DNA from: Escherichia phage vB-Eco-KMB23 | Strand: one strand, 5' to 3' | Sequence record: OR525702.1 | Length of the DNA: 64,000 nucleotides | Shown: piece by piece, positions 37,144 to 38,739 of the stretch | How the letters are laid out: every line of letters begins with the position of its first letter | How positions within the stretch are numbered: position 1 is the first letter of the stretch | The notes under the pieces: model-generated | Told to the model about the DNA's origin: nothing | Seen by the model: the letters and a program-made list of their open reading frames with translations, nothing else | Database searches by the model: none | Position numbers and translations under genes: made by a program

Positions 37144-37219
37144 TGGTCGAGGCAGTAGGGATCGAACCTACGACCCAGGACTTAGAAGGTCCTTGCTCTT
37201 CCTTCTGAGCTATGCCCCG
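37144..37219 (-). tRNA. tRNA-Arg (anticodon UCU), CCA encoded
   Basis: Manual cloverleaf: acceptor CGGGGCA/TGCCTCG, anticodon loop CTTCTAA, T-arm GTAGG-TTCGATC-CCTAC. Confidence 0.8.
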
Positions 37220-37223
37220 TAAT

Positions 37224-37299
37224 TGGGGTGACCGATGGGAGTCGAACCCATGACTACGAGAATCACAATCTCGAGTTCTACCAACTGAACTACGGCCAC
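37224..37299 (-). tRNA. tRNA-His (anticodon GUG), CCA encoded, no encoded G(-1)
   Basis: Manual cloverleaf: acceptor GTGGCCG/CGGTCAC, anticodon stem CGAGA/TCTCG, loop TTGTGAT. Confidence 0.7.
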
Positions 37300-37413
37300 A
37301 TTAATACCTACTCCAACAATCATGATGTCTTCACACGAAATTAAGAGAAGAGTGATCAGTTCAACCCCTATAATCGCGTCAAGTAGATATTAATGTGACA
37401 GTTGTCACAAATT

Positions 37414-37488
37414 TGGCGGACGTGATAGGATTCGAACCTATAACCAATCGCTTAACAGGCGATCGCTCTGCCATTGAGCTACACATCC
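37414..37488 (-). tRNA. tRNA-Asn (anticodon GUU)
   Basis: Manual cloverleaf: acceptor GGATGTG, anticodon stem ATCGC/GCGAT, loop CTGTTAA, T-loop TTCGAAT. Confidence 0.7.
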
Positions 37489-37492
37489 AAAT

Positions 37493-37579
37493 TGGTGGGG
37501 AGTGGTGGAGTCGAACCACCCGAGTCGCAATGACAATGGATTTACAGTCCACACCGCTACCTCTACGGGATAACTCCCC
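37493..37579 (-). tRNA. tRNA-Tyr (anticodon GUA), long variable arm
   Basis: 87 nt; anticodon loop CTGTAAA; class II variable arm; T-loop TTCGACT. Confidence 0.7.
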
Positions 37580-37591
37580 TAATTCATAATT

Positions 37592-37666
37592 TGGTGGCCC
37601 TGGGTGGAATTGAACCACCATCTGGCGATTATGAGTCGCTTGCTTGAACCTTCCAGCTACAGGGCC
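37592..37666 (-). tRNA. tRNA with CAU anticodon (Met, or Ile if lysidine-modified as for T4 tRNA-Ile)
   Basis: Anticodon loop CTCATAA; acceptor GGCCCTG/CAGGGCC. Confidence 0.65.
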
Positions 37667-37667
37667 T

Positions 37668-37743
37668 TGGTGCTGATTGACGGAATCGAACCGCCGACCT
37701 TCTCATTACAAGTGAGTTGTTCTACCTACTGAGCTAAATCAGC
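37668..37743 (-). tRNA. tRNA-Thr (anticodon UGU)
   Basis: Acceptor GCTGATT/AATCAGC; anticodon stem ACTCA/TGAGA, loop CTTGTAA; 1-nt spacer from previous tRNA. Confidence 0.8.
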
Positions 37744-37748
37744 AAAAC

Positions 37749-37838
37749 TGGCGGAGGCGATAGGATTTGAACCTATGAGTCGCCGGAGCGACTGCCGGTT
37801 TTCAAGACCGGTGCATTAAACCACTCTGCCACGCCTCC
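37749..37838 (-). tRNA. tRNA-Ser (anticodon UGA), long variable arm
   Basis: 90 nt; anticodon stem CCGGT/ACCGG, loop CTTGAAA; T-loop TTCAAAT. Confidence 0.8.
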
Positions 37839-37844
37839 AAATAT

Positions 37845-38495
37845 TTATATATTGTTAATTTGATTTAGAATTCTTTTTGCTTGAGTATGACTTACACCAA
37901 TATGCTTAGCATATTTAGATAATTCACCACGTTTAGAAAAATCATATAATTTAGAAATTTCTATTCTTCTTTTTCTTTCATCCGCAGAAACTTTTGATTC
38001 GTTTGCTTTTGCTATTTTACGTTTAGCTTCTTGAGAATGAGTTTTACCAGCAAAGCCATTCTTCATTAATCCATTTGAAGACCATCCTTTTAATTTTCCG
38101 TTAGAATGTGCCTTTTTAACACCCAATGAAATTAATTCGCGTTGCTGATCTGTCATAGGATAATTATTTATATGATCCCATCCACCTTCACCGCCGAGTT
38201 TTAAATTATACACATCTGGTTTATTTAAAAACTCTTCTGTGACAATATTTTTCTCAGCTTCAAGCATAGATTCTTTATCATCAAAATACTCTAATATTTC
38301 TTTAGAAAAATTTTCTATACCATATTTATCTTGGGCTCTTTTTAATAATTTACCAGAACCCATATATCCATCATCTAAATTTTCGGTAGAATGCACACCA
38401 ATATAAATTTTATTATTAATTTTATTTGTTATTTTATAAAGATAAAAATGCATATCAGTCCCTAATAAAGAACTGAGCGTCTCACGACGAGTCAT
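37845..38495 (-). CDS. segB: GIY-YIG homing endonuclease (SegB-like) embedded in tRNA cluster
   Basis: GIY-YIG module FYLYKITNKINNKIYIGVHS; C-terminal basic helix-turn-helix-like region; start codon ambiguous (38495 or MHFYLYK at about 38453). Confidence 0.75.
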   Translation of the reverse strand: MTRRETLSSLLGTDMHFYLYKITNKINNKIYIGVHSTENLDDGYMGSGKLLKRAQDKYGIENFSKEILEYFDDKESMLEAEKNIVTEEFLNKPDVYNLKLGGEGGWDHINNYPMTDQQRELISLGVKKAHSNGKLKGWSSNGLMKNGFAGKTHSQEAKRKIAKANESKVSADERKRRIEISKLYDFSKRGELSKYAKHIGVSHTQAKRILNQINNI

Positions 38496-38499
38496 AAAT

Positions 38500-38573
38500 T
38501 GGAGCGGATAATGAGAATCGAACTCACATCATCAGATTGGAAGTCTGAGGTAATACCATTATACGATATCCGC
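38500..38573 (-). tRNA. tRNA-Gly (anticodon UCC)
   Basis: Acceptor GCGGATA/TATCCGC; anticodon loop CTTCCAA; T-loop TTCGATT. Confidence 0.8.
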
Positions 38574-38578
38574 AAATT

Positions 38579-38665
38579 TGGTGCGAGAAGTGGGACTCGA
38601 ACCCACAAGGAAATCATTCCGCAGCATTTTAAGTGCTGTGCCTTTACCAATTTGACCATTCTCGC
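38579..38665 (-). tRNA. tRNA-Leu (anticodon UAA), long variable arm
   Basis: 87 nt; anticodon stem CAGCA/TGCTG, loop CTTAAAA; acceptor GCGAGAA/TTCTCGC. Confidence 0.8.
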
Positions 38666-38666
38666 G

Positions 38667-38739
38667 CTGGGAATAAAGGACTCGAACCTTTGCATCCTGG
38701 AATCAAAATCCAGTGCCTTACCAACTTGGCTAATTCCCA
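38667..38739 (-). tRNA. tRNA-Gln (anticodon UUG), 3' CCA not encoded
   Basis: Anticodon stem CTGGA/TCCAG, loop TTTTGAT; acceptor TGGGAAT/ATTCCCA; abuts tRNA-Leu with 1-2 nt spacer. Confidence 0.75.

Follow-up and report, generated by a model that had tools for sequence, protein, structure and literature searches.

We analyzed a 64,000-nucleotide (nt) stretch of the genome of Escherichia phage vB-Eco-KMB23 (sequence record OR525702.1; referred to here as the window) and focused on a cluster of ten transfer RNA (tRNA) genes at positions 37144-38739. This cluster is almost certainly a tRNA operon from a T4-like Tequatrovirus, and its arrangement of ten tRNAs is frequent among sequenced relatives. 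The ten cloverleaves all lie on the minus strand with spacings of 1 to 12 nt. The cluster is interrupted by a SegB-type endonuclease gene, a structured spacer RNA of about 100 nt, and a small open reading frame (ORF), and it is followed by homologues of rnaD and rnaC and by a terminator-like hairpin (Table 1). Two of these elements, the tRNA-His gene, which encodes no G at position -1 (G-1), and the spacer RNA directly upstream of it, are less usual than the rest.

Table 1. Features of the tRNA cluster and its surroundings in the window, from the highest to the lowest coordinate.
Feature	Position	Strand	Basis and remarks
Hairpin just upstream of tRNA-Gln	38749-38772	minus	about 10 bp; AAGGGUUCUU-GCUU-AAGAGCCUUU
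tRNA-Gln(UUG)	38666-38739	minus	ARAGORN and Rfam (67.4 bits); first gene of the cluster; CCA not encoded
tRNA-Leu(UAA)	38579-38665	minus	ARAGORN and Rfam; CCA encoded
tRNA-Gly(UCC)	38500-38573	minus	ARAGORN and Rfam; CCA encoded
SegB-like GIY-YIG homing endonuclease gene	37845-38453 (alternative start 38495)	minus	Pfam, BLASTP, DNA alignment
tRNA-Ser(UGA)	37749-37838	minus	ARAGORN and Rfam; long variable arm; CCA encoded (37749-37752)
tRNA-Thr(UGU)	37668-37743	minus	ARAGORN and Rfam; CCA encoded
CAU tRNA (predicted tRNA-Ile2)	37592-37666	minus	ARAGORN and Rfam; CCA encoded (37592-37595)
tRNA-Tyr(GUA)	37493-37579	minus	ARAGORN; long variable arm; CCA encoded
tRNA-Asn(GUU)	37414-37488	minus	ARAGORN and Rfam (74.1 bits); CCA encoded
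Spacer RNA (conserved, structured, about 100 nt)	37297-37397	minus	RNAalifold, covariation, covariance model
Spacer RNA, P1	37397-37381 with 37313-37297	minus	last 3 nt are G1-U2-G3 of tRNA-His
Spacer RNA, P2	37379-37375 with 37337-37333	minus
Spacer RNA, P3	37368-37362 with 37350-37344	minus
Spacer RNA, P4	37329-37326 with 37318-37315	minus	loop UCAUGAU at 37325-37319
tRNA-His(GUG)	37224-37299	minus	ARAGORN and Rfam (65.1 bits); G1:C72, C73, CCA encoded; U at -1
tRNA-Arg(UCU)	37144-37219	minus	ARAGORN and Rfam; CCA encoded
116-amino-acid ORF	36775-37125	minus	between tRNA-Arg and the rnaD homologue; not in T4; present as RB68_139 and as EL_147 (vB_Eco_EL)
rnaD homologue (species 2 RNA)	36663-36777	minus	local alignment 95/120 identical to T4 rnaD; ends conserved
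rnaC homologue (species 1 RNA)	36519-36656	minus	135/139 identical to T4 rnaC (97%)
tRNA-like portion of the rnaC homologue	36518-36611	minus	94-nt ARAGORN call as tRNA-Lys(UUU), rejected as a tRNA gene
Intrinsic-terminator-like hairpin	36445-36468	minus	terminator scan; 10 bp with 6 G-C pairs, then a T-run

The gene inventory rests on ARAGORN, which was run over the whole window, on drawn cloverleaf structures, and on a scan of 4227 Rfam families in which hits were reported at E<=1 and the tRNA model had a gathering cutoff of 29 bits. ARAGORN returned exactly the ten genes, anticodons, and coordinates that the initial annotation of this DNA had reached by manual folding. It assigned no differing anticodon and called no tRNA-Pro anywhere in the window. 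Nine of the ten tRNAs scored above the gathering cutoff of the Rfam tRNA model, at 59 to 74 bits. The long-armed tRNA-Tyr was matched in Rfam only via the related tRNA-Sec model (35.4 bits, under that model's cutoff of 47); its 99%-identical T6 orthologue has been validated experimentally (PMC13096335).

The ten-tRNA set is already known, as it is annotated in many sequenced relatives, and its difference from the T4 set is thus not novel. A 2.7-kb region spanning the locus has matches in 1,146 phage records, 52 of which cover at least 80% of it. The best matches, at about 97% identity over the full 2.7 kb, are the Tequatrovirus phages vB_Eco_EL, NR1, AR1, RB18, CrRp10, and others, and vB_Eco_EL is annotated with the same ten tRNAs in the same order. 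The junction running from Asn through the spacer and His to Arg is present at 95% identity or more in about 198 records. Compared with vB_Eco_EL, AR1, RB18, ACG-C40, and their relatives, the window has the ten tRNAs in order, the SegB-like gene, the spacer, the ORF, rnaD, and rnaC in common at about 97% DNA identity and differs only by scattered point differences; in the records of those phages the spacer RNA is unannotated, and in most of them so are rnaC and rnaD. Because dozens of independent genomes have the ten-gene arrangement, an assembly error as its source is very unlikely.

The reference genome of T4 (NC_000866) has the order Gln, Leu, Gly, Pro, Ser, Thr, Ile, segB, Arg, rnaD, rnaC. 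The T4 set given in the initial annotation (Arg, Ile, Thr, Ser, Pro, Gly, Leu, and Gln) agrees with this record, and so does the proposal drawn from it that His, Asn, and Tyr are extra in the window and Pro is missing. A three-way DNA alignment of the window, T4, and RB68 (alignment A1), with per-tRNA identities computed separately, shows that the cluster occupies the T4 slot in the genome: it sits between trna.2 and e.8, follows trna.4/.3/.2, and precedes rnaD, rnaC, and e.8, with all of these on a single strand. The flanks align with both T4 and RB68, and the flanks and the Gln-Leu-Gly block are identical or nearly identical to T4. Within that block, tRNA-Leu and tRNA-Gly are 100% identical to those of both T4 and T6, while tRNA-Gln matches T4 at 89% identity, the changes in its anticodon stem being fully compensated, and RB68 at 100%. 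The likeness to T4 extends to the Gln-Leu and Thr-Ile junctions, to a tRNA-Thr that is 95% identical, and to the presence of an embedded GIY-YIG endonuclease. Beyond this shared framework the locus is a mosaic relative to T4. The endonuclease gene stands between Gly and Ser, in the place of T4 tRNA-Pro, whereas in T4 it stands between Ile and Arg; Tyr, Asn, the spacer, and His occupy the place of T4 segB; and the 116-amino-acid ORF is extra. Both tRNA-Arg (66% identity) and the CAU tRNA (63% identity to T4 tRNA-Ile) are alleles other than those of T4. Among the three tRNAs that T4 lacks, tRNA-Tyr is the near-identical counterpart of the T6 gene, tRNA-Asn is 84% identical to the RB68 allele with compensated anticodon and T stems, and tRNA-His is found in none of T4, T6, and RB68. 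RB68 has nine tRNAs, without His and without the spacer, followed by rnaD and rnaC. T6 shares the tRNA-Tyr in a tRNA-rich region with a SegB-family gene, a documented anti-Septu locus (Chihara et al. 2026, PMC13096335), and differs in having seven annotated tRNAs in the order Gln, Leu, Gly, Thr, CAU, Tyr, segB, Arg, with segB between Tyr and Arg and with no Ser, Asn, His, or spacer RNA.

The spacer between tRNA-Asn and tRNA-His is 114 nt long, and most of it is predicted to fold. RNAalifold gave a closing stem P1 of 17 to 18 bp, a P2/P3 arm, and a P4 hairpin, whose UCAUGAU loop is invariant. The 5' leader of tRNA-His, up to position -1, makes up the 3' strand of P1, which in some genera extends into G1-G3 of the tRNA itself. 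The element is conserved in 355 phage records from several genera and is nearly never annotated. It always lies within a tRNA array and on the tRNA strand, and its neighbors vary: Asn upstream and His downstream in Tequatrovirus; Gln upstream and His downstream in Karamvirus, Jiaodavirus, and Gelderlandvirus; Gly upstream and Gln downstream in the Vequintavirinae phage W70; and Lys upstream and Asn downstream in a metagenome contig (L042). In Salmonella phage STP4-a (L012 1194-1330), the spacer RNA is intact and tRNA-His is reduced to GTGG followed by AT-rich sequence, which indicates that the spacer RNA can persist without its usual downstream tRNA.

We tested the predicted structure for covariation in a 12-sequence alignment, with pairing partners slid or shuffled (500 shuffles) as controls. 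In this alignment 94.1% of cells were paired, versus 36 to 50% with partners slid; nine pairs had changed on both sides, versus one to four in the slid controls; and the covariation score of 0.289 compared with at most 0.133 after sliding and was reached by 0 of 500 shuffles. P3 exists in two unrelated sequence versions, each of which forms a hairpin. A covariance model built for the element (R1) found one copy per locus, with sense-strand scores of 101 to 127 bits and antisense-strand scores no higher than 30 bits, and found no copy in T4, T6, or RB68. We propose that the spacer is an unannotated structured RNA, for which the covariation evidence is good but not conclusive because there are only about six independent lineages to draw on. 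The idea that it might be a decayed tRNA or a member of a known RNA family was rejected: ARAGORN called nothing there, none of the 4227 Rfam families matched 37300-37413 at E<=1, and the model found no copy in the three reference phages. Pattern scans of IMG/VR for further copies yielded only four to five loci; among 17 metagenome loci with pattern matches, about nine were dropped because GC-rich coding DNA had matched the pattern by chance. By eye, the loops of P3 and P4 could kiss, through UCAUGA with UCAUGA in the type-B variant and AUCA with UGAU in type A, a possibility that cannot be expressed in one alignment register. A literature search found no description of this RNA, with incomplete coverage of work on T-even phages and T5 from before 2000.

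Our best guess, made with low confidence, is that the spacer RNA is a small RNA freed by the tRNA-processing machinery, comparable to the species 1 and species 2 RNAs of T4, with a processing or regulatory leader as the alternative. The T4 RNAs, encoded by rnaC and rnaD, are small stable RNAs. Like them, the spacer RNA is structured and lies in the tRNA unit; it is about 100 nt long and is bounded by tRNA processing sites. It differs from them in having no sequence or model similarity to either.

The tRNA-His gene that follows the spacer combines standard bacterial features (GUG anticodon, G1:C72, discriminator C73, and an encoded CCA) with a T, hence U in the RNA, at position -1 (37299-37300, minus strand). 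The initial annotation had remarked on the missing G-1, and alignment with E. coli hisR, which has G at this position, bears the observation out. We compared 13 homologues from eight phage groups (Tequatrovirus, Karamvirus, Jiaodavirus, Gelderlandvirus, Kanagawavirus, Aeromonas Chrysonvirus, the Vequintavirinae phage CR9, and a mycobacteriophage), and all 13 have U at -1 and retain G1:C72, C73, and compensated stems. This sample consisted of BLAST homologues of the window gene, and the broader claim that phage tRNA-His genes generally lack G-1 did not survive an independent pattern scan of IMG/VR, in which 59 of 67 other viral tRNA-His genes had G at -1, among them 28 of the 35 located inside tRNA clusters. 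The absence of G-1 is therefore a lineage-specific trait. A group of bacterial tRNA-His genes without G-1 has been described, and it shares with the phage genes the absence of G at -1; these bacterial tRNAs have A73, a G1-U72 pair, a 9-nt D-loop, and a co-evolved histidyl-tRNA synthetase (HisRS) (PMC3064791). The phage tRNA-His, in contrast, has the standard G1:C72 and C73 and an 8-nt D-loop, and it must use a host HisRS of the G-1 type. We found no description of a phage tRNA-His without G-1 in the literature, again with incomplete coverage of the pre-2000 work on T-even phages and T5.

If the cluster works as its T4 counterpart does, it would be transcribed as polycistronic precursors, from which host RNase P and the enzymes of 3' processing would cut the tRNAs. 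This picture derives from junctions that are identical to those of T4 and from the classical work on T4. The 3' end of tRNA-Gln reads ...A72-G73-C and is followed directly by G1 of tRNA-Leu. As the initial annotation had it, tRNA-Gln encodes no CCA; all nine other tRNAs of the cluster encode N73-CCA. The Gln-Leu junction, CCCAG-C-GCGAG, is invariant in the window, T4, and RB68, and in T4 it yields the classical Gln-Leu dimeric precursor, which supports the earlier suggestion of such a dimer here. The Thr and CAU tRNAs are separated by one nucleotide, the same as at the Thr-Ile junction of T4. Gln-Leu and Thr-Ile would thus probably be freed as dimeric intermediates by RNase P, and tRNA-Gln alone would need CCA addition by the host.

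Once matured, the tRNAs would supplement the decoding of codons that the AT-rich phage overuses. We compared 89 ORFs of the window (17,846 codons) with 24 E. coli core genes (6,640 codons). Relative to E. coli, the window uses AGA 14.8x, AUA 5.7x, ACA 3.4x, GGA 3.3x, UCA 2.5x, UUA 1.9x, and CAA 1.5x as often. For the three tRNAs that T4 lacks, for which the initial annotation had suggested a codon-usage comparison with the host, the outcome was divided: Asn and Tyr (all codons) stand at 1.64x and 1.70x and are among the amino acids with the largest demand increase in the phage, whereas His is used less than in the host. Several points weigh against reading the whole cluster as a working operon that serves phage translation. 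Demand does not explain His, whose codons stand at 0.81x. The set of E. coli codons used for comparison was small. A sigma-70 promoter scan gave 11 sites versus 10.1 expected by chance, and no promoter was assigned. The transcription, processing, and charging of the cluster tRNAs are inferred from T4. Finally, a missing G-1 lowers the efficiency of E. coli HisRS more than 100-fold (PMC3064791).

The tRNAs would also buffer the phage against host defenses that cleave tRNAs, and plausibly the codon supply and anti-defense roles both apply; computation cannot separate them. A stronger version is that Tyr, Asn, and His are kept mainly as anti-defense cargo, replacing host tRNAs destroyed by Septu, retron-Eco7, PARIS, or colicin E5-like nucleases, and not for codon supply. 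We regard this as a serious possibility that falls somewhat short of being probable. Colicin E5 cuts four tRNAs with GUN anticodons, a set that includes those for Tyr, Asn, and His. The T6 tRNA-Tyr, to which the gene in the window is nearly identical, counteracts Septu when overexpressed, and T4, which has no tRNA-Tyr, cannot escape Septu (PMC13096335). The PARIS nuclease AriB cleaves host Lys(UUU), Thr(UGU), and Asn(GUU), with His and Pro as minor targets, and the phage T5 versions of its targets Asn(GUU) and Thr(UGU) rescue infection (PMC12409363). The tRNA-Asn of the window has G at position 39 (U36-A-A-G39), where the RB68 allele has U (U-A-A-U39); this alters the UAAU motif reported beside the AriB cleavage site (PMC12409363). 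Set against this version is the codon comparison, in which the excess demand for Asn and Tyr is so large that supply alone explains both. The phage tRNA-Tyr is, moreover, itself cleaved by Septu (PMC13096335), and codon supply and defense roles are not exclusive of each other.

For tRNA-His, a further explanation is that it does not function in translation in E. coli at all. It could persist as a relic alongside its structured leader, or it could act as a decoy or sponge that occupies a tRNA-targeting nuclease or HisRS; in either case G-1 would not be needed. We consider this possible but rather unlikely. In its favor, U stands at -1 in the window and in every homologue even though G1:C72 and C73 stay, the IMG/VR scan indicates that phage tRNA-His generally retains G-1, the loss is costly with E. 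coli HisRS, and the low use of His codons removes a codon-demand reason for the gene. That His(GUG) is a minor target of AriB (PMC12409363) also points in this direction, as does STP4-a, in which the His gene has decayed and the upstream element remains. The conservation of the gene argues the other way: the cloverleaf, anticodon loop, C73, and CCA are kept with compensated stems across genera, which would be unexpected for a relic. An abundant tRNA may also be chargeable even as a 100-fold weaker substrate, and we know of no nuclease that has tRNA-His as its main target. A phage tRNA-His lineage that departs from the standard identity features only at G-1, the strongest of them, poses a clear question of charging versus decoy.

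It is also conceivable, though very unlikely, that tRNA-His acquires G-1 or an equivalent 5' end by another route, either leader-directed 5' processing or 5' nucleotide addition by a phage or host activity, and is then charged normally: C73, with which G-1 would pair, is strictly retained, and the leader from -1 to about -14 is base-paired in P1 in every homologue, with an A:U(-1) pair in 12 of 12 sequences, which makes a plain RNase P reaction on a single-stranded leader unlikely for 5' maturation; but no G is available near -1 to be kept, E. coli to our knowledge has no Thg1-type enzyme, no nucleotide-adding domain was found by Pfam in the few proteins scanned in the region (the window was not searched exhaustively), and the same RNA precedes tRNA-Gln in W70 and tRNA-Asn in the metagenome locus L042 and is thus not specific to His.

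Taken together, the tRNA-His without G-1 and the RNA that pairs its whole 5' leader may form a mobile two-part module, now dispersed among tRNA arrays in several Tevenvirinae genera. In this proposal, to which we assign a low probability, the RNA would either represent a novel class of small phage RNA that tRNA processing sets free or act as a control element for an unusual maturation or use of tRNA-His. Should the RNA control a tRNA-His that a G-1-dependent host HisRS would barely charge, the tRNA would have a nontranslational role, for example as a decoy. The ten-tRNA set, the shuffling of the locus by SegB, and the anti-defense value of tRNA-Tyr are all already annotated or published; a covariation-supported RNA that is present in 355 phage genomes, outside Rfam, and nearly never annotated could be of specialist interest, as could the tRNA-His lineage that lacks G-1.

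The endonuclease gene bears on the origin of the mosaic. Its product scored 26.8 bits against the Pfam GIY-YIG model (cutoff, 22.6 bits) and also matched SegE_GIY-YIG, with NUMOD3 borderline. Residues 1 to about 97 are about 97% identical to SegB of T4 and T6, and the DNA of this catalytic half is nearly identical to T4 segB. The BLASTP local alignments, which run into the divergent part, gave 96/117 identities (82%) with T4 SegB and 100/120 (83%) with T6 SegB, and BLASTP found no alignment with either protein past about residue 117. The C-terminal variant has its own set of homologues in about 55 phages, including AR1 ("segD") and RB51; across these phages its label varies between "segD" and "SegB-like." As judged from these alignments, the homing endonuclease is a chimera of a SegB catalytic half and an unrelated C-terminal half; another DNA-binding half would fit its other insertion site, in the place of T4 tRNA-Pro.

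Variability of the tRNA locus among T-even phages has been published (PMC2330249, PMC13096335). SegB cleaves inside tRNA genes at a T-arm motif and, in mixed infections, drives inheritance of the T4 tRNA region. The tRNA sets of T2L, RB1, and RB3 are different and contain an Asn gene; this tRNA-Asn is the preferred cleavage site of T4 SegB (PMC2330249). Since SegB cuts in tRNA genes and drives their inheritance, and since T-even relatives hold other tRNA sets, the differences from T4 would have arisen by endonuclease-driven and homologous recombination between coinfecting T-even phages. The locus is a good example of tRNA cargo exchange among these phages.

The initial annotation had correctly read one anticodon as CAU and had left the identity of that tRNA open. 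We assign it, on the basis of its body and acceptor stem, as a predicted AUA-reading tRNA-Ile2 of the ileX type, the counterpart of T4 tRNA-Ile and nearer to the host tRNA-Ile(CAU) than to tRNA-Met. Across E. coli genomes it matches an annotated tRNA-Ile best, with 81.6% identity. Position 7 is the only difference between its acceptor stem, GGCCCUG/CAGGGCC, and the one in E. coli tRNA-Ile(CAU), GGCCCUU/CAGGGCC, the anticodon arms are identical, and the 5' strand of the acceptor is common to T4 tRNA-Ile. The acceptor pairs C4:G69 and C5:G68, which are determinants for TilS, are both present, and a lysidine at C34 would be expected for the reading of AUA.

Other differences among the tRNAs are small. 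The CCA of tRNA-Ser and that of tRNA-Ile2 are encoded here, whereas the T4 orthologues have none; for tRNA-Ser, alignment A1 shows CCA in the window (...CCTCCGCCAGTTTT) versus UAA in T4 (...CCTCCGTAATTTT). With these two ends encoded, the phage should depend less than T4 on host 3' trimming and CCA addition. The tRNA-Arg(UCU) of the window has a G3.U70 wobble together with G2:C71, G4:C69, and A73, where the RB68 and STP4-a alleles have A3-U70. This combination is the core alanine identity set recognized by the alanyl-tRNA synthetase AlaRS, and mischarging of the tRNA by AlaRS is possible. Just upstream of tRNA-Gln is a hairpin that is kept in T4 with small changes; processing of the precursor's 5' end may take place there.

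Downstream of the tRNA genes, the stop codon of the 116-amino-acid ORF overlaps the first bases of the rnaD homologue, and no Pfam family was found for this ORF or for the neighboring ORFs. The center of the rnaD homologue (about 45 nt, 36690-36735, minus strand) is wholly different from T4 and RB68 and has small hairpins of its own, GGAG..CCUCC and CACAG..CUGUG. An eleventh tRNA call by ARAGORN, a tRNA-Lys(UUU), falls within the rnaC homologue. The Rfam scan gave no tRNA match for it at E<=1, the orthologues in T4, RB68, and vB_Eco_EL yield no such call, and we treat it as a tRNA-like portion of the rnaC homologue and not as a tRNA gene. The called structure has an 8-bp acceptor stem, a long extra arm, and a perfect T-arm (CCGGGTTCGAATCCCGG); the call is lost in T4, whose loop holds one extra A. 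Beyond rnaC, the terminator-like hairpin is the probable end of the tRNA and small-RNA transcription unit.

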